Virus record (IMG/VR): IMGVR_UViG_3300035670_000436
Coordinates: 1 to 43,654 of that record
Length of the DNA stretch: 43,654 nucleotides
Reading direction: 5' to 3' (one strand)
Source of the DNA: a virus
Within the stretch, counting starts at the first letter, position 1. Each line of letters begins with the position of its first letter. A program made the position numbers and the translations under genes. A model generated the notes under the pieces. That model was not told where the DNA came from. It made no database searches and saw nothing but the letters and a program-made list of their open reading frames with translations. Positions 1 through 43,252 of the stretch are shown one piece after another.

Positions 1-127
1 GATGATGGTGAGCCTTACCTGACTACGCAGAAGGCTATGATCAGCCGTGACGGTATCGGCGCGGGAGTTAACTTCGATCCTGATACCGCTGTCAAGACTG
101 CACAGGCAGAAGCGTTGAAGAAGGCAT
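1..127. repeat. 127-bp exact direct repeat with 43528-43654 (circular-assembly overlap or terminal redundancy)
   Basis: gatgatggtgagccttacctgactacgcag...gttgaagaaggcat is identical at both window ends. Confidence 0.95.
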
Positions 128-372
128 GTCACCAGTATGGTATCGCATTGTACTTGTGGGATTCTGCTGAACGTGACTTTGTAGAGTTGCAGCGGCAGGC
201 TGCCAAGAGTGATGTTGCACTCAAGCAGTTGGTCGTAGCGTACACACAGCGCGTACTAGAACTTGATCCTGGAGTCATGCCTGAGAAGGATCAGATGACC
301 ACAGCCCTTGGCATTGACGAACTAGAAGTTGATACTATTCGTCAGGCCCTTACTAGTGTAGGAGTGCTCTAA
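1..372 (+). CDS. Rad52/Sak-like single-strand annealing protein, C-terminal part (continuation of ORF 43261-43654 once the overlap is collapsed)
   Basis: Frame 1 is open from base 1 and in phase with the ORF that runs off the window end. Contains ...RDGIGAGVNFDPDTAVKTAQAEALKKACHQYGIALYLW, a Rad52-type annealing-domain signature. Confidence 0.6.
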   Translation, partial: DDGEPYLTTQKAMISRDGIGAGVNFDPDTAVKTAQAEALKKACHQYGIALYLWDSAERDFVELQRQAAKSDVALKQLVVAYTQRVLELDPGVMPEKDQMTTALGIDELEVDTIRQALTSVGVL

Positions 373-638
373 TGAAGTTGTATGATCGTGATTTTATTCT
401 CAGCCAGTTGACCGCTATGCAGGAACAGCGCCGACTCGTCATCAGTATCCTATTTGATATGGATCAGCGGATGGAAGAGATCGAGAACTTTGTGTATAAT
501 CAGGACAAGTTGGCTAATCCTTTCCACTACGATACCATGTGTAACTGTGATGATTGTGAGTGTCAGCGGAACACGTATCGTGTGATGGTTGAGGATGATG
601 TAGATATTATGGATGATGCTTCTTACCGGATGGACTGA
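372..638 (+). CDS. hypothetical protein, 88 aa, Cys-rich (CNCDDCECQ)
   Basis: TAATG stop/start overlap with the upstream gene. No family recognised. Confidence 0.5.
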   Translation: MKLYDRDFILSQLTAMQEQRRLVISILFDMDQRMEEIENFVYNQDKLANPFHYDTMCNCDDCECQRNTYRVMVEDDVDIMDDASYRMD

Positions 639-1570
639 TGATTGTCGCTATCGACACAGAAACCACAGGCGTAGCCTGGGATGATGATGCGTTCATGATC
701 AGCATGGCATCCGACAGTTTCACGCGCATATATGATAAGCGTATTGTTTCTGATACTAAATGGGAGAACATGGTAAACGAAACTATTGTTACCCTTCGTG
801 CTGCTGATCATATTATAATGCACAATGCAAAGTTTGATATCCAAAAACTTTGTCGCCTTGGTATTCCGCTTCGTGTATTTCTTAACAAGTTTGAGGACAC
901 ACAAGCCATCGCCCACCTGATCGATGAGCATCAGTCCACAAGCCTGAAGAAACTAGCACAAAAGTATCTCAACGAAACCACAGATGAGGATGAGGTACTC
1001 AAGGCGTGGCGTCGCAAAAACAAACTGAAGAAGGAGGATGGTTATGCGCCGATTCCTAACGAGATTCTTGCACCGTACGCAGCCAAAGACGCAGAGTTCA
1101 CATTGCGGCTTTACAATTTACTTTGGCCTCGACTGCCCGAAGATCTGCACTCGTTGTATCAAACAGAGAAGGACCTAACCATTGCACTACTAGACATTGA
1201 GGCTCGTGGCATGCGAGTCGATACCAAGTATGTATTACACAAGCGTAAGGAGTATGGTGATCGGATTTACAAACTTAAGTCTCGTATTGGGAAGATTGTT
1301 GGAGAAGAGTTCAACCCGCAATCACACCAGCAGGTTCTCGCAGCCCTTGAAGAACGAGGACTCGTGGTATCCTCTACCTCCAAAGAGTCTCTTGCGGGAT
1401 TGGATGATGAACTCGCACAACTAATCCTAGAGTTGCGAGAAGCGAACAAGATCAAGGCTACGTATTTTGATGCTATGCATGAGGAAACTAAGGATGGCAT
1501 TCTTCATCCTAACTTTCGTCAGCATGGTACTCGTACTGGTCGTATGAGTAGTGGAGCAGCAGAAGCATGA
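638..1570 (+). CDS. polA: family A DNA polymerase, N-terminal fragment (3'-5' exonuclease plus thumb)
   Basis: Exo I IDTETTG, Exo II HNAKFDIQKL, Exo III YAAKDAEF. Ends ...HPNFRQHGTRTGRMSS-GAAEA*, inside the conserved TGRLSS..PNLQNIP block. The stop overlaps the next ATG (ATGA). Confidence 0.85.
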   Translation: MIVAIDTETTGVAWDDDAFMISMASDSFTRIYDKRIVSDTKWENMVNETIVTLRAADHIIMHNAKFDIQKLCRLGIPLRVFLNKFEDTQAIAHLIDEHQSTSLKKLAQKYLNETTDEDEVLKAWRRKNKLKKEDGYAPIPNEILAPYAAKDAEFTLRLYNLLWPRLPEDLHSLYQTEKDLTIALLDIEARGMRVDTKYVLHKRKEYGDRIYKLKSRIGKIVGEEFNPQSHQQVLAALEERGLVVSSTSKESLAGLDDELAQLILELREANKIKATYFDAMHEETKDGILHPNFRQHGTRTGRMSSGAAEA

Positions 1571-2343
1571 TTAGTGTCATTACCCCATTATACAATACAC
1601 CACCGAATGTTCTAGCCCGTACATGGCATAGTCTCAAGCATCAGACGTATACTGATTGGGAATGGATCGTATGGGATGATTCGCCTAATGATCTGGCGTG
1701 GCGACAAGTCTACGGATTCTGTGCAGATGAACGCTACACCATTCGCATGTATCGTAGTCACGTATCTAGTGGTATCATTGGTGAGGTCAAGCATCAAGCC
1801 TTTATGATGGGACGAGGAGATATCCTCGTAGAACTCGATCATGATGATGCCCTCACTCATAACGCACTAGAAGAGATCAGCCTCGCATTTGAGGATGATG
1901 ATGTAGCGTTTGTATACTCTAACTGGGCTGAGATCAATGAGGAAGGACAATCCTGTAGGTATCCTGAAGGTTGGGCGTTCGGTTATGGTAGGGATTATTA
2001 TGATGATGTGTACAAGATGTGGGTAATGCGAGCACCAGAGATCAATCGTACCACACTCAGTCATATCGTATCAGCCCCGAATCATGTACGCGCATGGCGC
2101 AGAATCCCCTATCATATTCTTGGTGGGCACGACACCACACTCAGAGTCGCTGATGATTATGATCTAGTAGTACGAACACTCACCACCTGCACCGGATACA
2201 AGCATATCGACAAGTTACTCTACCTACAATATATTCATGCTAACACAGCACAACGAGTACACAATAAGGAAATCCAAGACAAAGTAGCACTACTATCCGA
2301 TAAGTATCGAGAAGAAATCGAGGCTCGTTATGCCGCCATTTGA
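1567..2343 (+). CDS. family 2 glycosyltransferase (GT-A fold), inserted between the two polA fragments
   Basis: N-terminus ISVITPLYNTPPNVLARTWHSLKHQTYTDWEWIVWDDSPND plus ELDHDD (DxD-like), typical of GT2. Confidence 0.75.
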   Translation: MISVITPLYNTPPNVLARTWHSLKHQTYTDWEWIVWDDSPNDLAWRQVYGFCADERYTIRMYRSHVSSGIIGEVKHQAFMMGRGDILVELDHDDALTHNALEEISLAFEDDDVAFVYSNWAEINEEGQSCRYPEGWAFGYGRDYYDDVYKMWVMRAPEINRTTLSHIVSAPNHVRAWRRIPYHILGGHDTTLRVADDYDLVVRTLTTCTGYKHIDKLLYLQYIHANTAQRVHNKEIQDKVALLSDKYREEIEARYAAI

Positions 2344-2515
2344 TTATTACGAACAGGACGAGGATGGTAGTTGGAACTGGTATTATTGTAGCATGCTTAC
2401 AGAGAATGCGTTAGAAACCATTGAGAAGCCTTGGCCCGTATTTGCAGACTCGTTCGACGCAGCCATGAACATCTTTATGGTACTAGTAAAACTCAAATAT
2501 CATGGAGTAGCATGA
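2330..2515 (+). CDS. hypothetical protein, 61 aa, acidic and Trp-rich
   Basis: Overlaps the GT2 end by 14 nt. Its TGA overlaps the ATG of the downstream polA fragment (ATGA). No family recognised. Confidence 0.45.
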   Translation: MPPFDYYEQDEDGSWNWYYCSMLTENALETIEKPWPVFADSFDAAMNIFMVLVKLKYHGVA

Positions 2516-3255
2516 ACGTACAAAATATTCCCCGAACACAGAAGGATGTGAAACGTGCGTTTGTCCCCAAACTATCATGCTTTTTGTTCTTTGATTATAA
2601 GGCCATCGAAGTACGGCTATTGGCATACTACCTTGCCCGTGCGATTAATGATACTAGTCTCTCCCAAGAGATTATCTCCGGCATGGATCCGCACGCTGTC
2701 ACCGCTCAAGGCTTGTACGGACGAGAGAACATCAGCGACGAGGAACGTCAAACAGGTAAGACACTAAACTTTAGTATTATCTATGGTGGTGGGACACCCA
2801 CAATTATGAGGCAGTTAGGCGTGTCATACAAGGAGGCTAGGCGTCTCCTGAAGGCATACCATACTACTCGTCCTGGTATCAAGCGACTCAATGAGAGCCT
2901 CGCAGAAGCCCTTAAACGGAAAGGATACGTACAGAGCCTCTACGGTAGGCACTTGCATGTAGAAGAGGAACATAAGACTCTCAACGCTCTGATCCAAGGA
3001 TCAGCCGCAGACCTCATGCGAGACGCTGTAGTACGAGTACACAAAGAACTCGATCAGCATTATGCTAGCCATATCGTCAACATCGTACATGATGAGATCA
3101 TCATTGATGCGGACAAGAATGAGATAGAACAACTAATACTAATTATTCCTAACCTGATGGGGAATAAACTCGTAGAGAAATACGTTAGTATAGAAACAGA
3201 TTGTGAGATTAGTCATACTAACTGGGCAGATAAGGAAGAATATAATGGCAATTGA
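2512..3255 (+). CDS. polA: family A DNA polymerase, C-terminal fragment (palm/fingers, all catalytic motifs)
   Basis: Starts MNVQNIP. Motif A FFDYKAIEVRLLAYY, motif B RQTGKTLNFSIIYGG, motif C VNIVHDEIIID. GGAG lies 4 nt upstream of ATG 2512. The ORF-track start at 2431 is probably only read-through of a decayed duplicate. Confidence 0.85.
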   Translation: MNVQNIPRTQKDVKRAFVPKLSCFLFFDYKAIEVRLLAYYLARAINDTSLSQEIISGMDPHAVTAQGLYGRENISDEERQTGKTLNFSIIYGGGTPTIMRQLGVSYKEARRLLKAYHTTRPGIKRLNESLAEALKRKGYVQSLYGRHLHVEEEHKTLNALIQGSAADLMRDAVVRVHKELDQHYASHIVNIVHDEIIIDADKNEIEQLILIIPNLMGNKLVEKYVSIETDCEISHTNWADKEEYNGN

Positions 3256-3481
3256 TGATCCAGTAAACAGCCCCAAACACTACACACAAGGCGACATGGA
3301 AGTCATTACTGCTATCGAAGGATTGGGACTTGACTACCACCAAGGTAATGTGCTAAAATATGTAGCGCGATACCGACACAAGAATGGATTGGAGGATCTA
3401 CGCAAAGCAAAATGGTATATTGACAGGCTCATCTATATTGAGGAGCAGAAAGCAGTAAAACAGCAAAGGAGTTATGTGTGA
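3245..3481 (+). CDS. DUF3310-like small protein
   Basis: SPKHYTQGDMEVITAIEG...GNVLKYVARYRHKNGLEDLRKAKWYIDRL matches my recollection of the DUF3310 pattern. AAGGAAG lies upstream of ATG 3245. Confidence 0.55.
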   Translation: MAIDDPVNSPKHYTQGDMEVITAIEGLGLDYHQGNVLKYVARYRHKNGLEDLRKAKWYIDRLIYIEEQKAVKQQRSYV

Positions 3482-4221
3482 GAATTCTAAAGTTAACAAG
3501 CCCGTATATGCGTGGTAAGGATGTGAAGGCCGCTCAGCGAGCATTGCGTAAGGCTAAGGCATGGGTTGGTCCGATTGATGGTATCTTCGGTCCTCAGACT
3601 GCGGCTGCTGCGAAGCAGGCTAAGTGGATGCTAGGCTATCCTGAAAAGGAGTGCACTCAGACGTATGGTCAGGCATTGCATGATTATCTGACTGGTAAGA
3701 AGAAGCCTAGTATGCTTATGCGTCGTCGTGCTGAGAAGCGTAAGGTTTCTCATAAGCCAATGCGTGAGAAGGCACTAGAAGAGTCTATCAAGTGGATTGG
3801 TACCAAGGAGAATCCGCCTCACTCTAACAAGGTTATGTTCTCCGAATGGTATGGTCTGCGAGGACCCTGGTGTGCAATGTTCGTAACATGGTGTTACACC
3901 CAGGCTGGAAGCAAATCGTTCGACCCTAAGAAGGCTCGATGGGCATACTGTCCCTTCATGGTAAATGATGCTCGCGCTCAGCGCAACGGCCTCGTCGTAG
4001 TCCCCGTCGATCAGGTACAGCCTGGAGACATTGCTATGTTTGATTGGCATCGTGATGGCATCAGCGATCATGTAGGCATCGTAGAAACCAAGCCTAACAA
4101 AGGTAAATTTAAGTGCATCGAAGGCAACACGGCTGTAGGTAATGATAGTGACGGCGGTGCTGTCATGCGTAGGGATCGTAACACTAGTCAGGTACAAGTA
4201 TTCATTCGTGTCGTAGCGTAG
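3478..4221 (+). CDS. endolysin: peptidoglycan-binding domain plus CHAP peptidase
   Basis: GTG start after AAGGAG. PG_binding_1-like GKDVKAAQRAL...IDGIFGPQTAAAAKQAKW. CHAP-like catalytic Cys (GPWCAMFVTWCY) and His (SDHVGIVE). Confidence 0.8.
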   Translation: MRILKLTSPYMRGKDVKAAQRALRKAKAWVGPIDGIFGPQTAAAAKQAKWMLGYPEKECTQTYGQALHDYLTGKKKPSMLMRRRAEKRKVSHKPMREKALEESIKWIGTKENPPHSNKVMFSEWYGLRGPWCAMFVTWCYTQAGSKSFDPKKARWAYCPFMVNDARAQRNGLVVVPVDQVQPGDIAMFDWHRDGISDHVGIVETKPNKGKFKCIEGNTAVGNDSDGGAVMRRDRNTSQVQVFIRVVA

Positions 4222-4230
4222 GAGAATAAG

Positions 4231-5508
4231 TTGATCACAGAGTCGCATAAGAATTGGTTTGAGAATGAGCGCGGCATCAGCCTCGCAACTCTTGAAGCCT
4301 TCGGTATCGAATCCAGTAGTGATGATTGGGTCATGATGCCGTATGGTAATCGTCAGCGGTTCCGTCGAATGGCAGAACCCCGCACGTTCAAGTGGGGCAA
4401 GGGCGAAGGCACCAGCCTCTATCAGCCTCAGAGCATGAAGAAGGAGAATTATGCTTTCCTCTGCGAAGGAGAGACTGATACCATGCGACTCTATGAGGAG
4501 GGCATCCAGAGTGTGTATGGCCTACCAGGCTTCCAAACATTTAGTGAGGACACACTCAAGCCCCTCCGCGAGTATGAGAAAGTATTCGTAGTACTAGACA
4601 ATGATGCAAACTATAATGTCAAGACGACTGTTGACCAGGCATGGGCTAGGCTACGAGGCGCTCTAGGCTCCAAGGCTAGGCGTATCCAACTCCCAGATGA
4701 TGTCAAAGATGTTTGCGAGTTCTTCGACTCGTACAGCATTGATACGCTACGCGACATCACTAAGAATGCTGCGAATGGTAATTATCATTACCAGTCACTC
4801 GACCTTGCAGCACCACCCCCAGAATACGAATGGCTCGTGAAGGGCCTCATCTGTAAGGGTGACACTACGCTGCTAGTCGGAGAGCCTAACGTAGGTAAGT
4901 CGTGGCTCAGCCTAAGCCTCGCAGTCAGCATCGCAGACGGCACCAACACTTGGCTAGGACACGAGGTCTGCACACAAGGTCGCGTACTCTACATTGATGA
5001 GGAGAATCCGCATGATGTTGTATATCATCGTCTTCGCCAGTTGGGCGCTGTATCTTTTGATAATATACGGTACCTACACAGGCAAGGCATCCGATTGGAT
5101 CGTAACTTTGATAAACTACTTGACGAAGCAATCGCATACGAACCAACGATGATCGTCCTCGACAGCCTCACCCGACTCCACACCAAGGATGAGAATAATG
5201 CTGGCGAGATGGCAAAACTATTCAATGATAGTATCAATGTGATTTGTCGAGAAACAGGCGCAGCCGTACTAATTATTCATCATACTAACAAGGTACAGTC
5301 CGACTCTTCGTACGTTAAGACTCGTGGGTCTAGTGATATTGGCGCAGCAGTCGATTCTGGCCTTGAAGCACGGAAGCAGGAAGGTAACCGCTTCAACCTC
5401 GTACACTTCAAAAGCAGGCGATCTAGGACTGGAGGCTTGACACGAGTAGAAATCTGTGATACCATTGATGGTAAGGTAGAGTTTGTTCTACACGACGAAC
5501 CCTTTTAG
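4231..5508 (+). CDS. bifunctional primase-helicase (Toprim domain plus RepA/DnaB-like P-loop ATPase)
   Basis: TTG start after AGGAG. Toprim FLCEGETDTMRL...VVLDNDAN. Walker A GEPNVGKSW. Walker B MIVLDSLTRLH. Confidence 0.8.
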   Translation: MITESHKNWFENERGISLATLEAFGIESSSDDWVMMPYGNRQRFRRMAEPRTFKWGKGEGTSLYQPQSMKKENYAFLCEGETDTMRLYEEGIQSVYGLPGFQTFSEDTLKPLREYEKVFVVLDNDANYNVKTTVDQAWARLRGALGSKARRIQLPDDVKDVCEFFDSYSIDTLRDITKNAANGNYHYQSLDLAAPPPEYEWLVKGLICKGDTTLLVGEPNVGKSWLSLSLAVSIADGTNTWLGHEVCTQGRVLYIDEENPHDVVYHRLRQLGAVSFDNIRYLHRQGIRLDRNFDKLLDEAIAYEPTMIVLDSLTRLHTKDENNAGEMAKLFNDSINVICRETGAAVLIIHHTNKVQSDSSYVKTRGSSDIGAAVDSGLEARKQEGNRFNLVHFKSRRSRTGGLTRVEICDTIDGKVEFVLHDEPF

Positions 5509-5516
5509 GAGGTATT

Positions 5517-5876
5517 ATGAGTGAACCAGAAGTTATCGTAGGCCCTTGGGGCGGAGAGGAGTACGACATGGCAGAGCAGGAGTTCCAGTCCGCTGTCGAA
5601 GAGTTAATCGCAACGAATAATGAGGAGATGCTGGGACGCACCATCGCTGGAGTTCTAGAGTTCCTCACCATCAAGGCTATCCTTGACGGACCATACTATG
5701 TTCTCAACGAGGATAGTACTGCTGTTACCATCATCGCTTCTGGTGAGGATGCTGAAGCAGCCGTCAAGTCTCTACCCGATAATTTTAAGAATTGGGATGA
5801 GGTAGAGCCGGTCGAGTATTTGACCGATACTGATCCGGGTGATGAGGCTGATGAGCCTACCCCCGAATCGGAGTAA
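5517..5876 (+). CDS. hypothetical acidic protein, 119 aa
   Basis: AGGAGG RBS. Coding-like composition. No family recognised. Confidence 0.5.
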   Translation: MSEPEVIVGPWGGEEYDMAEQEFQSAVEELIATNNEEMLGRTIAGVLEFLTIKAILDGPYYVLNEDSTAVTIIASGEDAEAAVKSLPDNFKNWDEVEPVEYLTDTDPGDEADEPTPESE

Positions 5877-6177
5877 ACAATGGAAGGATTGGGAGCGTGA
5901 GGTCGCTCGCGATCTTGGCGGGACTCGTACTGGTCCTCGTGGTTTTGATGTACCAGACGTAACCGACCTACCCGGAGACTTCGCTCCGGAATGCAAGTAT
6001 CAGAAAAGGCTCTCTCTGAAGGATGCGGACCTAAAGCAGGCACAACACAATGCTAAAGGCCGTGAGTGGTCCCTATTCCTCAGAGAAGCCCGCTCTGGTA
6101 GACGATACGTAGTAGTACCCTACAAGACATTCCTCAAAATGTGGGATGCATACACAGAAGGAGAAACAAATGAGTGA
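5839..6177 (+). CDS. putative PD-(D/E)XK-type endonuclease / Holliday-junction resolvase-like protein
   Basis: WEREVARDL...GFDVPDV...FAPECKYQK gives a D...ExK arrangement. The start is ambiguous (GTG 5839, ATG 5842 or 5851). Confidence 0.4.
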   Translation: MMRLMSLPPNRSKQWKDWEREVARDLGGTRTGPRGFDVPDVTDLPGDFAPECKYQKRLSLKDADLKQAQHNAKGREWSLFLREARSGRRYVVVPYKTFLKMWDAYTEGETNE

Positions 6178-6526
6178 GTACATGACTGTTGCTGGTATCG
6201 TTCAATTCGACCCGCGCAATCGTCAGGCTGGAGGCAAGGAGGTTCGTGACGTTCTCATCCGCGCCCTCAACAGCACCAAGAATTTTAGCATCACCGTGTG
6301 GCCTGAGAACACGGTCGAGATCAACAAGGGTGACTTCATCATCGCTGATGGTAAGTACACCCAGACCACGGGACAGAACAAGGAAGGTGAGCAGGTCACG
6401 TATCATAACTTGTCCGCCACCAACGTTCTCCGATTCTCCGGAGACTCTGGTACTGCTGCTGCCCCGACCACCCCGAAGATCGCTGCCGTACCCGACATGG
6501 ACACGGGCGACGACTTCCCGTTCTAA
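6170..6526 (+). CDS. ssb: single-stranded DNA-binding protein
   Basis: AAGGAG RBS before ATG 6170. OB-fold-sized body, Gly/Pro/Thr linker and an acidic C-terminal tip DTGDDFPF like the SSB DDDIPF tail. Confidence 0.75.
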   Translation: MSEYMTVAGIVQFDPRNRQAGGKEVRDVLIRALNSTKNFSITVWPENTVEINKGDFIIADGKYTQTTGQNKEGEQVTYHNLSATNVLRFSGDSGTAAAPTTPKIAAVPDMDTGDDFPF

Positions 6527-6804
6527 TGATCAGCCCTGACGATCAACGTGTCAGGGATTATTCAAGACTAATCGCTGATGCTGCATACAAGTTCCGCAAA
6601 GCAGCAGAATATGATGATCTGTACCAGGAAGGCATGATCGCAGTCTGGTCGTGTCCGCCTGGTGCAGACTCAAAATATATTAGCGCAGCAATATTCAACA
6701 GAATGAAAGACTGGATTAGGTATGTAAAACGCTTACGACACCTACATACTGTCTCTTACGAAGAGATCATGGAGCACGAAGATGTATCAGAAACAAACAG
6801 TTGA
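6526..6804 (+). CDS. sigma-70 region 2-like protein (N-terminal half of a sigma factor)
   Basis: YDDLYQEGMIAVW...YISAAIFNRMKDWIRYVKR resembles sigma region 2.1-2.4. Confidence 0.55.
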   Translation: MISPDDQRVRDYSRLIADAAYKFRKAAEYDDLYQEGMIAVWSCPPGADSKYISAAIFNRMKDWIRYVKRLRHLHTVSYEEIMEHEDVSETNS

Positions 6805-7078
6805 GGACATGCTAAGAAACTATACAACCATCACACATTATATTATGCATAGTGGTGATGAGGAAGTGCATTCTTATAAGTTGGATCTGGACATCGCTCT
6901 GCAAAAACTCCAAGATTTTAGTGGTAACCTACACAAGACAATTATTAGTGTATTTGTTTGGGGGATTCCCATCCAGGAACAAGCGAAGAGAATGAATGTA
7001 TCTAAGCGTCAGATCAGCCGCAGGCTCGATGATGGTCTGCATTTTCTGACAATGATTATGAATGGAGAAGTTCTATGA
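6782..7078 (+). CDS. sigma-70 region 4-like HTH protein (C-terminal half of a sigma factor)
   Basis: LHKTIISVFVWGIPIQEQAKRMNVSKRQISRRLDDGLHFL resembles the region 4.2 HTH. It is in the +1 frame relative to 6526-6804 and overlaps it by 23 nt. Confidence 0.55.
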   Translation: MYQKQTVEDMLRNYTTITHYIMHSGDEEVHSYKLDLDIALQKLQDFSGNLHKTIISVFVWGIPIQEQAKRMNVSKRQISRRLDDGLHFLTMIMNGEVL

Positions 7079-12721: not shown

Positions 12722-15700
12722 TCACCCCCCACCAAGAATCATATTAACCTGTGACTGACTAAGACCCCTCAACTGAGCCTCGCTAGGATACTGCTCACGC
12801 AACTGTTGCAACACAATCTGCACCATCTCAGGATCAGAATTCTGAAACTTAGGAACATAATACGTCAAAACAAAATCCCTAAGCCGACGCCACTCCTCAA
12901 GATTCTCAGCAGCCTTCGTACGCTGAGACTTAAACGCCTTCTTCTGCTCCTCAACAAGCACACCACTAGCATCCCATTGCTGCTTCGTCATCTCATCAAG
13001 CATAACAGGATCAAGGCTCATAACACGAGAAGGAGCAAACACATTAAACAAACCAGCAGCAGTAGTCGTCGGGAAACGCTGACTCATACGCTGAGGCACA
13101 GCCCTCAACTTAGAATTCTCAGGATCATTAGGATTAACAAAAATATCCTCAGCATTATTAATATCCCTAGCCTCATTAAGATCCATCTCAGTCTTAAACA
13201 AATTAGCAGTCTGAGCAATCACAGGGAAAGACTGATACATATCAGCATAATAACTCAATAGGCTTTGATTCTTCTGATCCTCAGTAAGAGGAATACCCGT
13301 AAGAGGATCAACGCCCAACTGTTGAGCGATACCACCCACAAGGTATGGGTTCATGCCCTGAGTAAGTTTACCCATGTCACCAAGATCAGTACGCAGTCCA
13401 GGAATAATACCCTGCACCTGAGCAAACGAACGACCAGTCTGACCAAGCGGATTAACACTACCACTCATCACAAAATTAAGACGAGTAGGATCGAGTCCTA
13501 GAACATTAGCAACACTACCCGCGAGAGGAATACTTTCAAGCATCCACTCTGGCAAGCCACCAGCCTCCAACTGTTCAGCATAACCATAATTACCCATATT
13601 AAACATCACATTAGAAGTAATAGGACGATCCTGAACAAGCCGCTTAGTGAACAAGGCCGAATGCCTAGTCCAAGCATAGAAGGGTAACAGGAAGTCACGA
13701 ACCGTCTTCTCAGCCGGAGTGAACCAACGATAATTACCAACAACACTATCAGCCTGGTATCGCATCTCACGAAGCAGAAAAGGATTATAAAACTCACTAT
13801 TACGATCCGCGATCAGTCGAAGCGCAGCATGAAAACGAGTCTGCTTACCAATCAAACGCTCAGGCACAGCAGTACTCATATAATCAGTAACAACCTGACT
13901 ATTCATAAACTTAGCAAACAACGGATCACTCATTGCAGCCTTCTTCATAATCATAGCCCGAAGAGCAGACTCAAACGCGAACGCAATAATATAACCGAAC
14001 GAGGCGACAGTCTTAGCGACCTTACCACCAATACGAGCAGGCTTATTATTAAGCAGAGGACGCATCACACGAGCCGCACTAGGAGCCTTCCGATCCGCAG
14101 CATTAACAAGATCCGTAAGGCGCTGACCACGAACAGCCATATCCTCCATGAAAATGTTACCACTAGCAAAATCATCAGAGAAGATCTCTTTAAGGATCAT
14201 ATAATCATCGCCCAACTGGGCAAGATCCACGATCTCCCTCCGCTGCTCACGACGCATCTTACGACCCTTAAACGTAGCCTCACGAGCAGCATTCTGCGCA
14301 CCCTTAGCAAGAAGACTAGCCATAATCTGTGGTGCCCACTCAGGACGAGCAATCATAAGCATAATACTCGACCCGACAACCTGCTGATTAATAAATCGAG
14401 GACTCATAGCAAGCACCAGAGTCTTAAACAAGTCACTAGCACCATACAGAATCTTCAACACCTTATTATTAGAACGACGCGCAGACTCACCAAACCGCTT
14501 ATGAATAGCCTTAGGAATTACCATAATATACGAATTAGGATCACGCAAACCAAGCGAAGCATAACGCGCAGCAACATCCTCAGGAGCCAACTCTGCCAAC
14601 TCCTTAGCATCCAACAAACGAATCATACTCGTATCAATAAACTGCTTACTAATATCCTGCTCCCAATCAGCAAGCCTCTGCAAACGCTGCTCAGAAAGAA
14701 CCATACTCATCGCATCAAAATAATTCATCTTAACACGATAATGCGTCTTCCCATCCAACTGGATCTCGTCAACCGTACCAACATTCTGCGCTTCCAAATC
14801 ACCCTGCTTACGAGTAGTAGCATACGCCTCAGCAGCAGCACGATTATCAAACACACGATAATTAACAAGCGGAATATAACGATCCTGATTATCAAGATAA
14901 TCACGAACACTAATCGGCACAGCAGTATCCTCAATCGTCTGCTCATAAAACTCTGTCACACGACGCTGAGTAGCCCGCATACTCGCAGCCAACTGCACAT
15001 CAAACTGGTACGAAGCAAGACCAGACGCAATAACCTCATTACGATTCTGACGGTTAGCAAACGATTCTGGACCACGAACACCACGAGTACTAATCTTATC
15101 CACAAAGTCTCGCGCATTCGGAAACAACTTATTCATCTTATTAACAATCGCTACCTCAACATCAATTTGACCCTCAGCAGGGCTTTTAAACTTAACCTTA
15201 CCCGTACGACTACGCGACAAAGCCCACTCTGGAATCCACACAATATCATCACTAAGCAAACCCTTACGCTCAAACGTCATATCAGCATCATCAAAATTAC
15301 CCTCAACACGAAGATAACGCATCGGATAGAATGTCATACGAGGACCAGCAACCTCATCAGTCAATCTCTCGCCAGTAATAGCAACATCCTCCAAACGCTG
15401 CCTACCAGTACGAGTACTCACAGTCACAGGCTTCACAGACTCATCCAAGAATAAGACAGGACGACCACCAGAATCACGAGTAGCCATATCCTCCTTCAGC
15501 CTAGCAAAACCATCATTAACCTGATCCATAAACTCTGCGACACCCTTAACACTAAGATCAACCACATTACCATCAGCATCAGATAACTGTCGAACATCAG
15601 CCTTAAGCAATTCGGGAATACGCATATTAGGATTAATCATCGGCATCACACCGCCACGAAGAACATTAGCCCCATCAGCGCCAAGTTCGGCAACAACATC

Positions 15701-18700
15701 CTCCGGAAGAAGACGACTAGCCGTAAGAATCAATGCGTACGTACGCTGAAATGCTGCAAGAGCACGAGGATCAGCCTCACCCTTAAGAACACGATTATTA
15801 CGCTCAGACAATAACATCATCGCATCACGCATCTTAGCAACACGACGACCACGCTCAGTACGCGGAATGCCCTGATCATCAATATCAAGAATAGAAGCCA
15901 TAGCATCACGATAACGACGCTCAAACTCTGGCGTCATATAACGATCATAATCAACCTCAAGCAGCCTAATCTCACCACCACCAGCCCGCTGAGGCATACC
16001 AAACGACTCACCCAACTCTTCAGCCTCATCAAGCCTACGGTTAATAGTCGCAATAAACGCAGCATAACCCTGACCATTACCACCCGCAGCAGCCCAAGCA
16101 GCCATCTGCTCAGCATCATCAAGATCAGCATTAGACAATTCTTGTAACTGACGCTCAACCATAAACTCTCGACTAGCCATATCCGAAACAAACGGATCAG
16201 ACTCTCGCATAGCCTTACCATAACGATACTGGAAACCAATCAGAGGAAAATTAATACCAATCTTCGACTTCTGAAAACCCAGCATAGCATTCTGAAAACC
16301 ACGACTCGCAGGATTACCAGCAAGACGAATATACACACGATCCTTAGCCTCCGCAGCATACTTCTGCGACAACTTATCCAAGAACGAGCCAGCCTCAGCA
16401 TCAGGCACAGCATCGCGAACATTAAGAGCAATATAACGAGGTTCAAAAAACGTAGCAGCACGATCAATACGACCAGCACTATACATCTGATTCAATTCAC
16501 CAAAATTACCCTCACTCATAAGGACACGCATAACTGCTTCAGCATTAGGCGAAGAACCAGTCATAACCTGCCGCTGTACCTTAGCGAACTGTCGAGCACT
16601 CATACCAGCACGACTAGCCTTAGTCGTCATAGCAGCAACCTTAGCGACTTGTGCGCCCTTCGTAGCCCAACCAGCCACAGGCACAACAGTCAAAAGATCA
16701 AGAATAGGGGCAAGCGGATCCTCCAATGAAGAATCAACAAACCCATCCACACTAGAATACCGACGCTCATAATCCGACTTAATCGCATCAAGCGCATCCA
16801 TAGGATTATCCACAATACTATACAAACCATACGGAATAGCCGCAGTAGTCCGAACAATACTTTTAGCAAAATTCTTCTTAACCTCATTCGTAGCCTGCCA
16901 AGCATTCATATTCGTACGAATAGCCTCAGCACTAGTCGGCGATAAAGGACCAGCATTACCCAACTCTGCAAGCCTACCCAGAGCAAACTCTGCCGTATCC
17001 GTCTGGAACGACATATAATCTTCCTTATTACCAATAATCTCATTATAACGATCCGTACCCAGATCATTAAAAAACTCGTTAGCAAGACCAACAACTTCTG
17101 GACTAAGATTAGCATCCCCAGCAATAGCCTTATTAACCATATTAATAAAATCAACCTTCTGACGGTCACGCAAGTATTCTGCACTACGAAGATCCTCAGT
17201 AGCCTTATTAATCTCAGCACCAACCGTCTGACCACCAGACAATAAGTCTGCCAAGCGGCCAAGCGTAGACTCTTCCTCTAAACCAAGAGCCTCCGACGAG
17301 CGAACAGTATTACGCGCCGACGTATCCCCACCAGTAGGAGCATTAAAACTTTCTTTAATGCTCTTAAGAACATCAGGAGGAATATCCTCAGAACGACCCT
17401 GCATAATAAGAGCACGAGCATTAGCATACTGCTCTTCGGGAGTAACATTAGTGAAGAACTCTAATCGAGCCTCCTCCTGATACAAGCGCTGTTCAGCCTC
17501 TTCTTCAAGACGACGCTTAGTAGCAGCACTAGCCCTCTCCTTCTGACGCTCAGCCGCTTCAGTCTGACGAGCAATATCAGAAAAATTAATTCCCTGCATA
17601 TCATTAATAAAACGATTCTGCACATCCGCATACGTACCCTGCGGACTAAACGAGAACATATACGTCTTTAACTCGTCAACCTCAGTCGTATTAGCCTTAC
17701 CATTAAGAAACTTATTCCACAAGGCTAACCCGCGAGTGCCACCCTTATCCTCAATCTCATCAACAATCTTACCACGCCACTTAGCATCTGCTTCACGATA
17801 ATCCTTATACTTCGCAGCCATAGCCTCAAAATCAAACTCGTACTCAACCGTAGTACCAGTCTTCATTGTGACCTTATCAGCCTTATTAGGATCCGTAGAC
17901 TTCTCAACAACCGGATACTTCTCTTTAACCTCTACACGCTTAATATTCTTCTCACTCTGAGGATCATAAATAAACGCACTAGAACGAGGATTAAGACCAT
18001 AAATAGCCGAATAATACTCAAACCTATCATCAAACGAATAACTAGGCTTACGCTTCTCATACTCTAACTGTGTACGATCAGCACCAGAAGAAACCTTAGC
18101 CTTATAATTCTTAGAAAGAAAATTCTGCAAAGCAACAGGACTAGCAACAACAACAGGCTCTTCAACATTAGAACCCTTGCGCTTAACATACGCCATAATC
18201 CCATTACGAATCATATCTTGAGCATCTTTTTGCGTTACATCAAACGCTGCGCCCTTAGAATCAATAAAACTACGAACACCCGCCAGTCGCGCATCAGCAC
18301 CAGATACACCAGGCTTAGCAAACGCGAACATATCAAACGAGCCAAGATACCTTTCAGAATCAGGCACACTATACGGAAGCCTCTGACCAGTCTCATCACG
18401 AATAATACGACTAATCGCAGGCGTAATAACATTAGAAGGAATACCCTGAGGATACTTCTTTTTATAATAATTAGAAACCGTCTTATCATCATAACGATAA
18501 TTACGGCGCATCCATCGCGGAGTCCGCGCAGAGCCAGACGGTAAATACTTATATTCTACTCTACGGCTCCGCTGTCTTCGCTGCCTGATATTACTAATCT
18601 GAGCATTACTAAGATTCCACGCGGGATCTCTGCCCTTAGTAGGACCAATAACAGTCGCTTGACTACCCGGAGTCCTTGCCTTCATCGGGTCAAACGTACT

Positions 18701-18703
18701 CAT
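12722..18703 (-). CDS. giant virion-associated protein, 1993 aa (internal/ejection-protein candidate)
   Basis: Uninterrupted 5.98-kb ORF between internal-protein-like genes and the holin-like cluster. No catalytic motif recognised by eye. Confidence 0.7.
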   Translation of the reverse strand: MSTFDPMKARTPGSQATVIGPTKGRDPAWNLSNAQISNIRQRRQRSRRVEYKYLPSGSARTPRWMRRNYRYDDKTVSNYYKKKYPQGIPSNVITPAISRIIRDETGQRLPYSVPDSERYLGSFDMFAFAKPGVSGADARLAGVRSFIDSKGAAFDVTQKDAQDMIRNGIMAYVKRKGSNVEEPVVVASPVALQNFLSKNYKAKVSSGADRTQLEYEKRKPSYSFDDRFEYYSAIYGLNPRSSAFIYDPQSEKNIKRVEVKEKYPVVEKSTDPNKADKVTMKTGTTVEYEFDFEAMAAKYKDYREADAKWRGKIVDEIEDKGGTRGLALWNKFLNGKANTTEVDELKTYMFSFSPQGTYADVQNRFINDMQGINFSDIARQTEAAERQKERASAATKRRLEEEAEQRLYQEEARLEFFTNVTPEEQYANARALIMQGRSEDIPPDVLKSIKESFNAPTGGDTSARNTVRSSEALGLEEESTLGRLADLLSGGQTVGAEINKATEDLRSAEYLRDRQKVDFINMVNKAIAGDANLSPEVVGLANEFFNDLGTDRYNEIIGNKEDYMSFQTDTAEFALGRLAELGNAGPLSPTSAEAIRTNMNAWQATNEVKKNFAKSIVRTTAAIPYGLYSIVDNPMDALDAIKSDYERRYSSVDGFVDSSLEDPLAPILDLLTVVPVAGWATKGAQVAKVAAMTTKASRAGMSARQFAKVQRQVMTGSSPNAEAVMRVLMSEGNFGELNQMYSAGRIDRAATFFEPRYIALNVRDAVPDAEAGSFLDKLSQKYAAEAKDRVYIRLAGNPASRGFQNAMLGFQKSKIGINFPLIGFQYRYGKAMRESDPFVSDMASREFMVERQLQELSNADLDDAEQMAAWAAAGGNGQGYAAFIATINRRLDEAEELGESFGMPQRAGGGEIRLLEVDYDRYMTPEFERRYRDAMASILDIDDQGIPRTERGRRVAKMRDAMMLLSERNNRVLKGEADPRALAAFQRTYALILTASRLLPEDVVAELGADGANVLRGGVMPMINPNMRIPELLKADVRQLSDADGNVVDLSVKGVAEFMDQVNDGFARLKEDMATRDSGGRPVLFLDESVKPVTVSTRTGRQRLEDVAITGERLTDEVAGPRMTFYPMRYLRVEGNFDDADMTFERKGLLSDDIVWIPEWALSRSRTGKVKFKSPAEGQIDVEVAIVNKMNKLFPNARDFVDKISTRGVRGPESFANRQNRNEVIASGLASYQFDVQLAASMRATQRRVTEFYEQTIEDTAVPISVRDYLDNQDRYIPLVNYRVFDNRAAAEAYATTRKQGDLEAQNVGTVDEIQLDGKTHYRVKMNYFDAMSMVLSEQRLQRLADWEQDISKQFIDTSMIRLLDAKELAELAPEDVAARYASLGLRDPNSYIMVIPKAIHKRFGESARRSNNKVLKILYGASDLFKTLVLAMSPRFINQQVVGSSIMLMIARPEWAPQIMASLLAKGAQNAAREATFKGRKMRREQRREIVDLAQLGDDYMILKEIFSDDFASGNIFMEDMAVRGQRLTDLVNAADRKAPSAARVMRPLLNNKPARIGGKVAKTVASFGYIIAFAFESALRAMIMKKAAMSDPLFAKFMNSQVVTDYMSTAVPERLIGKQTRFHAALRLIADRNSEFYNPFLLREMRYQADSVVGNYRWFTPAEKTVRDFLLPFYAWTRHSALFTKRLVQDRPITSNVMFNMGNYGYAEQLEAGGLPEWMLESIPLAGSVANVLGLDPTRLNFVMSGSVNPLGQTGRSFAQVQGIIPGLRTDLGDMGKLTQGMNPYLVGGIAQQLGVDPLTGIPLTEDQKNQSLLSYYADMYQSFPVIAQTANLFKTEMDLNEARDINNAEDIFVNPNDPENSKLRAVPQRMSQRFPTTTAAGLFNVFAPSRVMSLDPVMLDEMTKQQWDASGVLVEEQKKAFKSQRTKAAENLEEWRRLRDFVLTYYVPKFQNSDPEMVQIVLQQLREQYPSEAQLRGLSQSQVNMILGGG

Positions 18704-20532: not shown

Positions 20533-21648
20533 CTAACCCCAAACAGCAGGATAAATTTGTTTCCAATTAGAACCATCATACACATAAACATTATCTTCAG
20601 AGTTTACATATACCGCATTACCCTCTGTAGGAGTAAGAGCGTTTCGTGCAGTAATATCTGCAACAGTAGGGAATGTATTACCCTGCGGTCCTTGGGCGCC
20701 CTGAGGGCCTTGTGGTCCCTGCGAGCCTGTATCTCCTTGGGGTCCTTGTGCACCAGTATCTCCCTGGGGACCCTGGGGTCCTACCGCTCCTTGCGGACCA
20801 GTATCTCCCTGTGCACCTTGTGCCCCTTGCGCTCCTTGCGCGCCTGTGTCTCCTTGAGGTCCTTGAGGCCCCTGAGAGCCTTGAGCACCTGTGTCTCCTT
20901 GTGGACCCTGGGAGCCTTGTAGTCCGGTGTCACCTTGGGGCCCTTGCGATCCCTGAGCACCAGTATCCCCTTGGGGACCTTGTGGACCAGTATCACCCTG
21001 CGGTCCTTGGGGACCTTGTGCACCAGTATCTCCCTGTGGTCCCTGTGGCCCTTGGCTACCCTGAGGACCCGTATCTCCTTGGGGACCTTGTGCTCCAGTA
21101 TCGCCTTGAGGGCCCTGTGCACCGGTATTACCCTGCGGTCCTTGAGGACCAACAGCCCCTTGGGCGCCCGTATCACCTTGTGGACCCTGAGCACCTGTGT
21201 CGCCCTGTGGTCCCTGTGGCCCGGTAGCGCCCTGCGCCCCAGTATCTCCTTGAGGTCCCTGAGCGCCAACATCCCCCTGAGGACCCTGCGCTCCCTGAGC
21301 GCCCTGCGCTCCAGTATCCCCCTGAGGGCCTTGAGCGCCCGTATCGCCCTGGGGGCCTTGAGGGCCTACATCACCCTGCGGACCTTGACTACCCTGAGCG
21401 CCCTGACTACCCTGCGCACCCTGAGCACCAGTATCCCCCTGAGCGCCCTGACTACCCTGCGCACCCACATCACCCTGCGGACCCTGAGGCCCAGTAGGAA
21501 GACTAAAATTAACAAGATCAACACTCATAGCCTCAAACTTATTAGCAAGATTAGTCGCAAGCAACTCGATATGATAAGCGACATTAGAAAGACTCTCATC
21601 ACCATCAGGATACGGAAAACCATACTTTGCAGTATATTTAATAGCCAT
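20533..21648 (-). CDS. collagen-like tail fibre protein, 371 aa
   Basis: About 91 uninterrupted G-X-Y triplets ([13 protein letters not shown]...) between an N-terminal anchor ([13 protein letters not shown]) and a 47-aa C-terminal knob. Confidence 0.8.
20674..21492 (-). repeat. 9-nt periodic G-X-Y coding repeat inside the fibre gene
   Basis: Degenerate GGN-CCN-CAR / GGN-GAY-ACN units throughout. Confidence 0.85.
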
Positions 21649-38563: not shown

Positions 38564-39472
38564 ATGGCAATGTCTCCCGAAATGAAAAACGATCTGTACA
38601 AGACTGTTACTACTGGTCTCATCGAGCAGATGGAGCAGGGCGTAGCGATCTGGCAGAAGCCTTGGGTTACTAGCAAGGCTCATCAGCCCCGCAACGGTCA
38701 TCATGATCGTGCATACAACGGTTTTAACCGTATCTACCTTGGTATGTTGCAGGACCAACTTGGTAGCAATGATCCTCGCTGGTACACCTTTGAGAATATC
38801 AAGGACTTGCAGCGCAAGGATGAGAAGATCAAGTTGCGCAAGGGTAGCAAGTCTACCATTGTGGTATACAATGGTCCTAGCACGTACACGGTTGAGAATG
38901 ATGAGGGTGAGCAGGAGGAGCGCACTTCGTGGCGACTCATCTACTATCGTGTCTATCATGCTAGCATGATCGAGAACCTGGCAGAGTATCAAGTTGACCT
39001 TGAGCATGAGCGTGTCGATGATATCGACATCGAGCATCCTGGTATCGAGTCTATGCGTGACTGGTGCGACCAACTTGCAGGCTTCTCGCATGGTGGTACC
39101 AAGGCATGCTACATTCCTTCGGAGGATGCTATCCGTCTACCAGAGGTTGATACTTTCCATAAGACTTCGTGGTATGCTCAGACTCTGGCGCATGAGATCA
39201 TTCATGCTACTGGTCATGAGTCTCGCATCAATCGGCTGGAGCGCACCGGCTTTGGTACTAGCACGTATGCCAAGGAGGAACTCATTGCTGAGTTTGGTGC
39301 TGCGATGATGCTTGGTAGTTATGGTATTCCGGTGGACATGGAACAGTCCGCTGCTTACCTGAAGTCGTGGGCTGAGCGGTGTAAGGATGAGCCTAGCCTG
39401 CTTGTGAGTGCGGCTAATGCGGCAGAATATGCTGCGGATTATGTAATGCAGGACGAGTACGCTGTAGCGTAG
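38564..39472 (+). CDS. ardC: ArdC-like protein (N-terminal ssDNA-binding domain plus C-terminal zincin metalloprotease)
   Basis: IWQKPW...PRNGHHDRAYNGFNRIYL...DPRWYTFENIKDLQRKDEKIKLRKGSKST and HEIIHATGH (HExxH). Confidence 0.65.
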   Translation: MAMSPEMKNDLYKTVTTGLIEQMEQGVAIWQKPWVTSKAHQPRNGHHDRAYNGFNRIYLGMLQDQLGSNDPRWYTFENIKDLQRKDEKIKLRKGSKSTIVVYNGPSTYTVENDEGEQEERTSWRLIYYRVYHASMIENLAEYQVDLEHERVDDIDIEHPGIESMRDWCDQLAGFSHGGTKACYIPSEDAIRLPEVDTFHKTSWYAQTLAHEIIHATGHESRINRLERTGFGTSTYAKEELIAEFGAAMMLGSYGIPVDMEQSAAYLKSWAERCKDEPSLLVSAANAAEYAADYVMQDEYAVA

Positions 39473-42744: not shown

Positions 42745-42824
42745 TTACTGGTATTATTATCGTACTAGTAATTGCTATCCCTTGGTTTCTTGGTATTACT
42801 CTAGCGATTGGAATGGATGACTAA
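42741..42824 (+). CDS. 27-aa hydrophobic single-TM peptide
   Basis: ATGA overlap upstream and TAATG overlap downstream. Sequence MITGIIIVLVIAIPWFLGITLAIGMDD. Confidence 0.4.
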   Translation: MITGIIIVLVIAIPWFLGITLAIGMDD

Positions 42825-43252
42825 TGCAAACTTTTGTACCCGAACCTGACATGGAACATAGTGTTCGTGTCCTTGACCGTCAGCGGCTTGGTAAGCAGCG
42901 TGTCGAGACTCTACAGATTATGAAGGCTCTTGCTGGTCTTAGCAAGGGTTGGACTAATCATCCTGCTACTCGTATGTGGCGTGGTTATGAGCATGCTCTG
43001 CTTGTATACCAGGCGCATACTGTTGCAGAGTGGAAGCGTCGAGGCTACAAGGATACTTGTTGGGAAAAAACCCTCGATGTGTACGATCAGCACTTCCGTC
43101 AGCATGAAGGTGTAAGTATGCCACATTGGTGGCGAGACAATCGTGTCCATGATTCACACAAGTCGGCCCTTGTATTCAAGGCCCCCGACTGGTATAGTGT
43201 AATCTACCCAGAAGTTGTTGGCGAATATAACTATTACTGGCCTGTAGACTAG
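42824..43252 (+). CDS. pyrimidine-dimer DNA glycosylase-like protein (endonuclease V / Pyr_excise-like)
   Basis: VLDRQRLGKQRVETLQI...KGWTNHPATRMWRGYEHALLVYQ...EWKRRGYKD pattern. Confidence 0.5.
   Translation: MQTFVPEPDMEHSVRVLDRQRLGKQRVETLQIMKALAGLSKGWTNHPATRMWRGYEHALLVYQAHTVAEWKRRGYKDTCWEKTLDVYDQHFRQHEGVSMPHWWRDNRVHDSHKSALVFKAPDWYSVIYPEVVGEYNYYWPVD

Follow-up and report, generated by a model that had tools for sequence, protein, structure and literature searches.

The 43,654-nt stretch of DNA analysed here (positions 1 to 43,654 of IMG/VR virus record IMGVR_UViG_3300035670_000436; hereafter the window) reads, from its gene content, as the ~43.6-kb podovirus-like genome of an uncultured phage. 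Near its start, two separate open reading frames (ORFs), polN and polC, together appear to encode a Pol I-like, proofreading family A DNA polymerase (PolA) with all catalytic motifs kept, and the gap between them holds a GT2 glycosyltransferase gene and a small ORF, orf61. Probably the PolA is an old enzyme that functions as two subunits, and mobile cargo sits at the junction of its genes, a hotspot of homing nucleases and recombination; for the nuclease-driven component of that mobility, which is argued from relatives and by analogy, the balance is only slightly favourable. The arrangement is best classed with the genes-in-pieces already known, of which it is a variant, and does not open a new category. 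An initial annotation, made from the letters of the sequence, had held that a GT2 cassette split a once-contiguous polymerase gene in this lineage; the best reading now reverses that causal order, with the two-piece polymerase coming first and the GT2-orf61 pair being an interchangeable occupant.

The ORF listing and direct reading of the DNA bore out the annotated four-ORF layout, with its coordinates (Table 1) and the overlaps of ATGA (1567-1570), 14 nt (2330-2343) and ATGA (2512-2515) that chain polN, GT2, orf61 and polC. The four ORFs look like one operon; the GC content of the insert is that of its flanks, with no anomaly, and a promoter and terminator scan of positions 1-4500 returned nothing exceeding shuffled expectation. 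polN and polC lie in different frames, 941 nt apart. In Pfam, polN matched DNA_pol_A_exo1 (PF01612, 9.7e-19) and positions 5-123 of the DNA_pol_A profile, and polC matched positions 127-380 of that same profile (PF00476, 9.7e-50). Exo I-III (DTET, NAKFD, YAAKDA) were read from the polN translation; motifs A (DYKAIEVR), B (RQTGKTLNFSIIYG) and C (VHDE), aligned to Bst Pol I, are all on polC. In PDB alignments, TGRMSS of polN and NVQNIP of polC both aligned to Klenow, Taq and Bst, the former to Klenow 666-671 (polN residue 305 = S671) and the latter to Klenow 675-680 and Taq 580-585 (polC residue 2 = Klenow N675 and Taq N580). The gene is thus split between TGR and NxQNIP, as had been claimed, and because the break corresponds to Klenow 671/675, the three-residue palm linker T672-D673-P674 is replaced by "GAAEA-stop / Met". 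The equivalent of R668 is on the polN chain and those of Q677 and N678 are on the polC chain. The annotated view that the two ORFs derive from one ancestral family A polymerase was upheld. Instead of the single polypeptide of a proofreading family A polymerase, two ORFs were found, in insert-free relatives as well as in the window.

Ratios of non-synonymous to synonymous substitution (dN/dS) were calculated by the Nei-Gojobori method as medians over relatives (29 sequences for the polymerase halves) and were 0.14 for polN, 0.11 for polC, 0.15 for GT2 and 0.24 for orf61, values that are approximate because synonymous sites are near saturation. All four genes appear clearly constrained, under purifying selection, and selection on both halves agrees with the earlier proposal that the polymerase would have to work as two polypeptides. 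No Rfam match was found in positions 1-4500, even at E<=1, and the insert is wholly coding, its out-of-frame ORFs being conserved and selected, so that the exclusion of a group I intron stood. The exclusion of an intein stood as well: the insert is out of frame, no intein or split-intein sequence was found at the break, and the polN tail past TGRMSS is 5 aa and the polC leader 1 aa, which leaves no split-intein halves. Neither the ribozyme core of a group I or group II intron nor the splicing blocks of an intein were present at the polN/polC break, and no slippery heptamer was found at the junction.

All four proteins were mapped onto IMG/VR contigs and the junctions were read. About 40 contigs carried polN and polC at 58-78% identity, giving 29 unique polymerase pairs, and polN was 65-74% identical in 28 relatives. 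Four contigs (L010, L011, L027 and L029) had an empty gap and yet were split at the same codon as the window. In these, polN ends …TGRMSSGA(A/V)EA-stop, with the TGA overlapping the ATG or GTG start of polC (…GAAGCATGAACGTACA…), and GCATGAACGTACA directly starts polC after TGRMSSGAAEA-stop (L010-type junction DNA, …GGAGCAGCAGAAGCATGAACGTACAGAATATTCC…). Because the empty-site junctions still carry the stop/start, the polymerase is in two pieces without any cassette, contrary to the proposal that GT2 made the split. The commonest state was GT2 alone in a gap of 760 nt, and GT2 was in the gap of 21 of the 29 unique contigs among close relatives. GT2 with orf61 was found in the window, L015, L022/23 and L030; an orf61 homologue alone in L004, L032 and L038; a 66-aa ORF (orf66) with GT2 in L035/37 and L036; orf75, GT2, orf61 and an HNH gene in L014; a ~1-kb block with two orf75-family paralogues, plus GT2 and orf61, in L034; and a 164-nt insert with a 29-aa ORF only, lacking any GT2 or orf61 homologue, in L024. 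At least six gene families occur in the gap across relatives, HNH and Endonuclease VII nucleases among them. Nothing was found for orf61, orf66 or orf75 in Pfam or PHROGs apart from the sole match of the orf75 family, a weak one between one paralogue and a PHROG of unknown function. The orf75-family proteins end …IRAAIRAAIGS(D/E)K(V/A), with one copy in L014 (3382-3609) and two tandem copies in L034 (4067-5009).

The split extends well beyond these close relatives. Homologues of polC numbered 431 at E<=1e-10, and the best 120 of the 431 were all 235-263 aa long. An exhaustive HMMER search covered 1.84 billion cluster representatives. In its top ~60 clusters, at 38-54% identity, nearly every protein is 200-290 aa long, and the sequences retrieved open with M-N-x-Q-(N/T)-(I/L)-P at residue 1 or close to it. 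A contiguous PolA first appeared at 44% identity (P0262, 634 aa, …TGRMACSEPNLQNIP…); P0262, P0307 and P0303 run unbroken through TGRM(A/S)C(S/A)(E/S)PNLQNIP or similar, and distant IMG/VR PolA loci are in frame, so the gene is contiguous in related genomes. Distant split loci have the break in the same place, with L128 reading …TGRFSSSKARE-stop and then directly ATG-NLQNIP, L130 reading …TGRLSSGAGE-stop, Endonuclease_7, NLQNIP, and L126/L127 reading …TKRFSSSAERG-stop, Endonuclease_7, NIQTLP. Downstream synteny with the window was retained in the DUF3310 gene (L126/L127) and the AAA_25 helicase (L126/L127 and L130). An identical break point in clusters at 38-54% identity, with other gene families in the gap, again speaks against a split made by GT2 in the window's own lineage. 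In a rough neighbour-joining (NJ) tree of the C-halves the split proteins formed one clade with the contiguous P0262 as its sister, which suggests that the gene was broken once, long ago. Searching IMG/VR with the distant P0243 and P0245 yielded no usable relative. On a 1.7-kb contig of another distant split lineage (L129, 1-510), polC is preceded by an unrelated 98-aa ORF and ~200 nt with Cys-rich (CxxC-like) coding potential, with no polN, which may be elsewhere. In a set of marine IMG/VR polA loci of ~27-30% identity (L096, L101, L102, L109/L111 and L088), the N- and C-terminal matches are ~320 nt to 1.3 kb apart; these gaps, at other positions, are probably introns, inteins or inserted genes.

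In all gap states the upstream ORF meets polC by a stop/start overlap (ATGA or GTGA) or by direct abutment. A Shine-Dalgarno (SD)-like GGAG or AGGAG precedes polC across gap states; in the empty state it is encoded by the GAAEA tail, and in the window a GGAG element likewise sits within the GAAEA-tail codons of polN. These features point to termination-reinitiation coupling of polC to its upstream ORF. Among flanking repeats just one is consistent, the 6-bp GCATGA of the stop/start overlap. Conservation over the first 30 nt of polC was 0.88 against a mean of 0.74 (third positions, 0.74 against 0.58), and this above-average conservation of junction-flanking DNA fits the usual preference of homing nucleases. 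Nuclease genes were found in the gap of relatives (Table 1), the Endonuclease VII genes in two distant split-polymerase lineages (L126/L127 and L130) and the HNH gene in one contig of the close clade; used as a query, the latter had no match beyond its own contig. The gap of the window holds only GT2 and orf61 and no nuclease gene.

Pairwise DNA comparisons located exchanges at the junction. L004 and L014 are 95.8% identical in polN and 89% in polC, and relative to L004, L014 has a 1034-nt insert (orf75 and GT2) immediately past the polN-stop/ATG and a 274-nt HNH insert immediately past the ATG that starts polC in L004, which displaces the polC start codon. The L014 polC has ATT where the ATG was, overlapping the TAA stop of the HNH gene (ATTAA), with an in-frame ATG 9 codons upstream. 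Between L010 (empty) and L009 (GT2), identity is 98.1% in polC and only 80.5% in polN, and a 764-nt cassette with GCATGA on both sides sets them apart; this mosaic breakpoint falls exactly at the junction. Between the window and L014, identity was 82% for GT2 and 83% for orf61 against 71% for polN and 70% for polC, so that the GT2-orf61 cassette has a more recent common ancestry than its surroundings.

The GT2 product is predicted to be an intact, selected GT-A enzyme that is mobile cargo and no part of the polymerase. It matched PF00535 (Glycos_transf_2) at 7.6e-19, with 68.7 bits against a gathering cut-off of 23.3, and an AlphaFold2 (AF2) model built from 39 homologues has a GT-A fold (predicted local distance difference test score (pLDDT) 90.6, predicted template-modelling score 0.90). 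The nearest Foldseek match was the GT2 domain of K4CP chondroitin polymerase (template-modelling score 0.70-0.75), followed by SpsA and by the wall-teichoic-acid glycosyltransferases TarS, TarP and RmlT, all at E ~1e-13 or better. The DxD motif (E89-L-D91-H-D93-D94) is invariant in the 39 homologues, as are ~60 other positions. The 1324 homologues found include many at ~60% identity and many in unrelated phages, where they lie at the end of a tail/tail-fibre module or just before the endolysin; because its genomic position is not fixed across phages, GT2 appears to be a mobile phage accessory gene. The best BFVD match was a protein of an uncultured Caudovirales phage (60% identity), and the best GenBank phage matches were to a 735-kb megaphage (41%) and cyanophage S-CRM01 (31%), both uncharacterised; no close homologue is a characterised enzyme. 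T4 DNA glucosyltransferases have the GT-B fold and this GT2 the GT-A fold, which makes DNA look like its least likely target.

At least two of the unrelated GT2-bearing phage contigs encode WhiB. On L119/L120 (7356-8798), L121 (2917-5956) and two further contigs, a ~60%-identical GT2 adjoins, or is one gene from, a 2-oxoglutarate (2OG)-Fe(II) oxygenase gene (PF13640). In L119/L120, which are WhiB-encoding, the pair follows tail-collar fibre genes, and in L121 a tryptophan-halogenase-like gene lies near the GT2 homologue. The adjacency to oxygenases suggests a module by which virion or fibre proteins are hydroxylated and glycosylated; no 2OG-Fe(II) oxygenase partner for GT2 was found in the window. 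The collagen-like tail-fibre protein of the window may be a candidate acceptor, and no link between it and GT2 was found. The second cargo gene, orf61, which stands alone in the gap of some relatives, had homologues in only 9 close relatives by a word-based search.

In the mechanism we propose, a replicative family A polymerase would be permanently encoded as two subunits, polN and polC, by a split that would be old, common to a large radiation of uncultured phages and older than the genes now in the gap. The junction (SD-like GGAG plus the GCATGA stop/start), lying beside conserved motif-coding DNA, would act as an insertion and recombination hotspot, occupied in some lineages by free-standing nucleases of putative homing type (HNH in L014, Endonuclease VII in L126/L130). 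Small cargo genes (GT2, orf61, orf66 and the orf75 family) would accumulate and be exchanged there, each spliced in so as to keep the ATGA/GTGA termination-reinitiation chain down to polC, and the GT2-orf61 pair of the window would have been acquired or exchanged horizontally among clade members. Several points weigh against this account. The non-covalent assembly of polN and polC into a Klenow-like enzyme is predicted from sequence alone, and an AF2 model of fused polN+polC in single-sequence mode, without a multiple sequence alignment, was unusable (pLDDT 37). The gap states intermingle in the close-clade NJ tree, whose deepest branches all have an insert, and the empty sites, being nested among occupied ones, may be secondary deletions. 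The single origin and the direction of gain and loss are provisional because the trees are NJ trees rooted at the midpoint. Since the gap of the window is free of nucleases, nuclease-driven mobility is argued from three relative lineages and from analogy. The GCATGA repeat is no proof of a transposition-type target duplication because translational coupling needs it too, and the junction-flanking DNA is not the most conserved stretch. Of the acceptors named in the initial annotation (virion proteins, host envelope or DNA), the GT2 most likely acts on a glycopolymer or protein, of host envelope or virion, rather than on DNA, as judged from the modelled fold, which is like that of enzymes acting on envelope glycopolymers, and no partner glycosylation gene was seen among the window ORFs scanned.

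That insertion of GT2, with or without orf61, into a contiguous polA made the split and left a decayed duplication (ATGGTACT… / YGTSKTQISWSS) is now very unlikely. GT2 is indeed the commonest gap occupant (21/29) and the deepest close-clade branches all have an insert; the annotated 11/12-nt repeat (ATGGTACTCGTA / ATGGTACTAGTA) does exist at 1524 and 2477, and the frame upstream of polC adds 5.6 bits to the Pfam score. As a target duplication, however, the repeat did not hold up. Seven comparable families of short repeats, this one (ATGGTACT(C/A)GTA) included, occur within 1.3 kb, and it lies in the orf61 coding frame, where it encodes the conserved peptide MVL(V/A)K. In local alignments against random 60-mers, run for the window and 16 relatives, it scored p ~0.03 in the window, p=0.65 in L014 and p=0.14 in L004, whose orf61 is 79-84% identical, and was not significant in L034 or L038 either. 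Scoring at chance level and not recurring in relatives, the decayed duplication was rejected as coincidence, and the alternative frame YGTSKTQISWSS, taken earlier for a polymerase remnant, contains stop codons in relatives. The cassette is moreover younger than its flanks, empty-site relatives are split, and relatives at 38-54% identity are split while lacking GT2, their gap being empty or nuclease-occupied. The comparison with contiguous PolAs and with insert-bearing and insert-free relatives, which had been put forward as a way to check the claim, thus upheld one ancestral gene and showed its split to be independent of the insert. It is more improbable still, to the point of being nearly negligible, that the enzyme is a single polypeptide after all, through RNA or protein splicing, bypass or frameshifting, or that the locus is an artefact or pseudogene. 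Phage polA genes do often contain introns and inteins (references in PMC10580990), and the frames of the empty site would be joined by a -1 shift at GCA-TGA; against this stand the lack of an Rfam match, of an intein and of a slippery heptamer, and a 941-nt insert that consists of two selected ORFs. The arrangement recurs in hundreds of independent assemblies (JGI, ENA, Logan, Tara, NCBI) and the halves have a dN/dS of ~0.1, neither of which fits an artefact or pseudogene.

A somewhat stronger, though still unlikely, alternative is a simple frameshift or nonsense origin followed by passive colonisation through ordinary recombination, with the nucleases as incidental passengers. The simplest state found is a bare ATGA overlap, or a stop followed by ATG (L128), frameshift-born fission of a PolA is documented (PMC10201439), only one HNH gene was found in the close clade, and the cassette borders are merely 6-bp microhomologies. 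The junction nevertheless has more than a 1-nt change would give when compared with contiguous relatives (an SD-like GGAG, a 5-aa tail and a stop/start), and two nuclease families occupy this exact gap in three separate lineages. The break in identity at the junction (98% against 80%) is also of the kind reported for boundaries of exchange marked by nucleases (PMC10448857).

Among the closest parallels to the two-subunit PolA are the genes-in-pieces of T4-like phages, made or occupied by free-standing homing endonucleases. PMC2988022 describes, for Aeromonas phages 25 and 44RR, a family B polymerase split into gp43A and gp43B, which co-purify and are active and have an untranslated spacer or a seg endonuclease between them, and also the split ribonucleotide reductase (RNR) of Aeh1 (nrdA-mobE), which keeps its function (Petrov et al. 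2006 and Friedrich et al. 2007, cited therein). As in those systems, an essential enzyme of replication, unbroken in relatives, is cut at a functionally critical region into two cistrons; both pieces are kept, and between them lies, depending on the phage, just a junction or a homing endonuclease gene. Unlike gp43A/gp43B, the present polymerase is of family A, with its break between TGR and NxQNIP and a much wider radiation; non-nuclease cargo (GT2, orf61 and others) is chained to the downstream half, and the system is known from DNA sequence only. In the cultivated, viable OM43 phages MEP401 and MEP402, PolA is likewise split, and a small unknown ORF separates its two parts (PMC10580990; OP830906); MEP401 resembles the window in its ~43-kb podovirus-like genome, RNR, primase/helicase, and exonuclease plus N-pol and C-pol ORFs. 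As read from OP830906, gp13 of MEP401 runs through …TGRLSSSSPNLQNFDGEIKTLFLSRYGE-stop, ending …SPNLQNFDGEIKTLFLSRYGE-stop, and gp15 starts MILNADAKALEW; its break therefore comes after PNLQN…, just before motif A and ~18 residues downstream of the break in the window, and for its gap neither a GT2 nor a nuclease is reported. None of the 40 best phage matches to polC, which were at <=33% identity throughout, was a MEP401 record.

Among other split PolAs, S-SBP1-like T7-like cyanophages have an exo|pol fission of frameshift origin, described as the first such case among PolAs, and an AF2 complex of the halves superposes on unsplit PolA (PMC10201439). LUZ24-like Pseudomonas phages are annotated with "DNA polymerase part I" and "part II", with ~ten small ORFs between them (PMC3890496), and PolA is split as well in a lineage of uncultured cyanophages (bioRxiv 10.1101/325100). 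The S-SBP1-like and LUZ24-like phages likewise make a family A polymerase from two genes, with the break at the exonuclease/polymerase boundary; in the window it lies inside the polymerase domain, after the thumb, and unlike in those phages the minor-groove-reading residues (R668; Q677/N678) are on separate polypeptides. The interruption of a conserved enzyme gene at a conserved motif, with a nuclease gene in the gap of some members, is shared with fractured genes that carry split inteins and an endonuclease (PMC2677866) and with the group I intron-bearing polA of SPO1, Bastille and other phages. Unlike in either, there are no intein halves, no ribozyme was detected and the product cannot be re-joined. 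Nothing relevant to split PolA was found in Kazlauskas & Venclovas 2011 (PMC3201878) or Amgarten 2017 (PMC5418858), and in literature of incomplete coverage, which makes this weak evidence, neither a TGR/NxQNIP break nor a glycosyltransferase or rotating cargo or nucleases in a split polymerase were found. GT2 itself resembles TarP of a S. aureus prophage (PDB 6h1j), a phage-carried accessory GT-A GT2 with a DxD motif (Foldseek E ~1e-13), although it is only 18% identical to TarP and is without its C-terminal trimerisation domain; virion modification is equally indicated, because homologues adjoin tail-fibre genes and 2OG-Fe(II) oxygenases.

A further reading, which is possible but rather doubtful, is that the break is a long-lived, nuclease-serviced "cargo bay" in an essential gene, through which homing nucleases and recombination shuttle accessory genes between divergent phages, since the flanks are indispensable conserved coding DNA with a self-restoring GCATGA stop/start. 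If so, expression of the cargo would be guaranteed and its loss would risk the polymerase. A stronger version would tie orf61 or GT2 functionally to the two-piece polymerase, in its assembly or in modification of DNA or the replisome. The two-subunit PolA matters in other ways as well. The family A fold appears to tolerate a permanent break in the palm domain, which persists across a large, abundant uncultured clade, and offers a natural template for engineered split polymerases; annotation and polA-marker surveys will miscall or truncate such genes. The series of empty, nuclease-occupied and cargo-occupied sites, in phages some of which are >95% identical nearby, could be used to test the part played by homing nucleases and intercistronic junctions in moving accessory genes from phage to phage. 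The ~257-aa GT2 is a widespread uncharacterised phage protein with >1300 homologues that moves between contexts and lineages and may modify virions or host envelopes.

Table 1. Features of the window and nuclease genes found between polN and polC in its relatives.
Feature	Sequence	Coordinates	Strand	Remarks
polN	window	638..1570	+	310 aa; ends ...HGTRTGRMSSGAAEA-stop; 3'-5' exonuclease, thumb, first palm element to TGRMSS, tail GAAEA
GCATGA junction hexamer	window	1565..1570	+	polN stop TGA overlapping ATG of next ORF
GT2 glycosyltransferase	window	1567..2343	+	258 aa; soluble, GT-A fold (predicted), DxD motif (LDHDD)
orf61	window	2330..2515	+	61 aa; small acidic protein
Second GCATGA hexamer	window	2510..2515	+	orf61 stop TGA overlapping polC ATG
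polC	window	2512..3255	+	247 aa; starts MNVQNIP; motifs A, B, C (palm, fingers)
DUF3310 gene	window	3203-3481		directly after polC
92-aa ORF	window	6526-6804	+	Sigma70 region 2, 3.9e-6
98-aa ORF	window	6782-7078	+	Sigma70_ECF, region-4 part, 7e-6; overlaps 92-aa ORF
1993-aa ORF	window	12722-18703	-	without PHROG match
Collagen-repeat (collagen-like) tail-fibre protein	window	20533-21648	-
ArdC-like antirestriction/metallopeptidase protein	window	38564-39472		ArdcN + MPTase-PolyVal
DenV-like pyrimidine-dimer glycosylase	window	42824-43252
Portal, major capsid protein, large terminase	window			
RNR, primase-helicase, CHAP endolysin, one tRNA-Leu	window
HNH endonuclease	L014 (IMGVR_UViG_3300035670_000410)	4601-4879		PHROG phrog_2255/3106, ~1e-21
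Endonuclease VII family (PF02945)	L126	3248-3727		between polN and polC, overlapping both
Endonuclease VII family (PF02945)	L127	235-714		between polN and polC, overlapping both
Endonuclease VII family (PF02945)	L130	1324-1746		between polN and polC, overlapping both

The window is distant from deposited phages: positions 1-6000 had no megablast match among GenBank phages, and the top protein identity to any deposited phage was ~33%. A second gene of the window appears to be in two pieces, an extracytoplasmic function (ECF)-type sigma factor represented by the overlapping 92-aa and 98-aa ORFs. Two-protein phage sigma systems exist, such as T4 gp55/gp33, which these pieces recall. Nearly all IMG/VR relatives have the sigma halves in different frames; in only ~3 contigs do the two share a frame.

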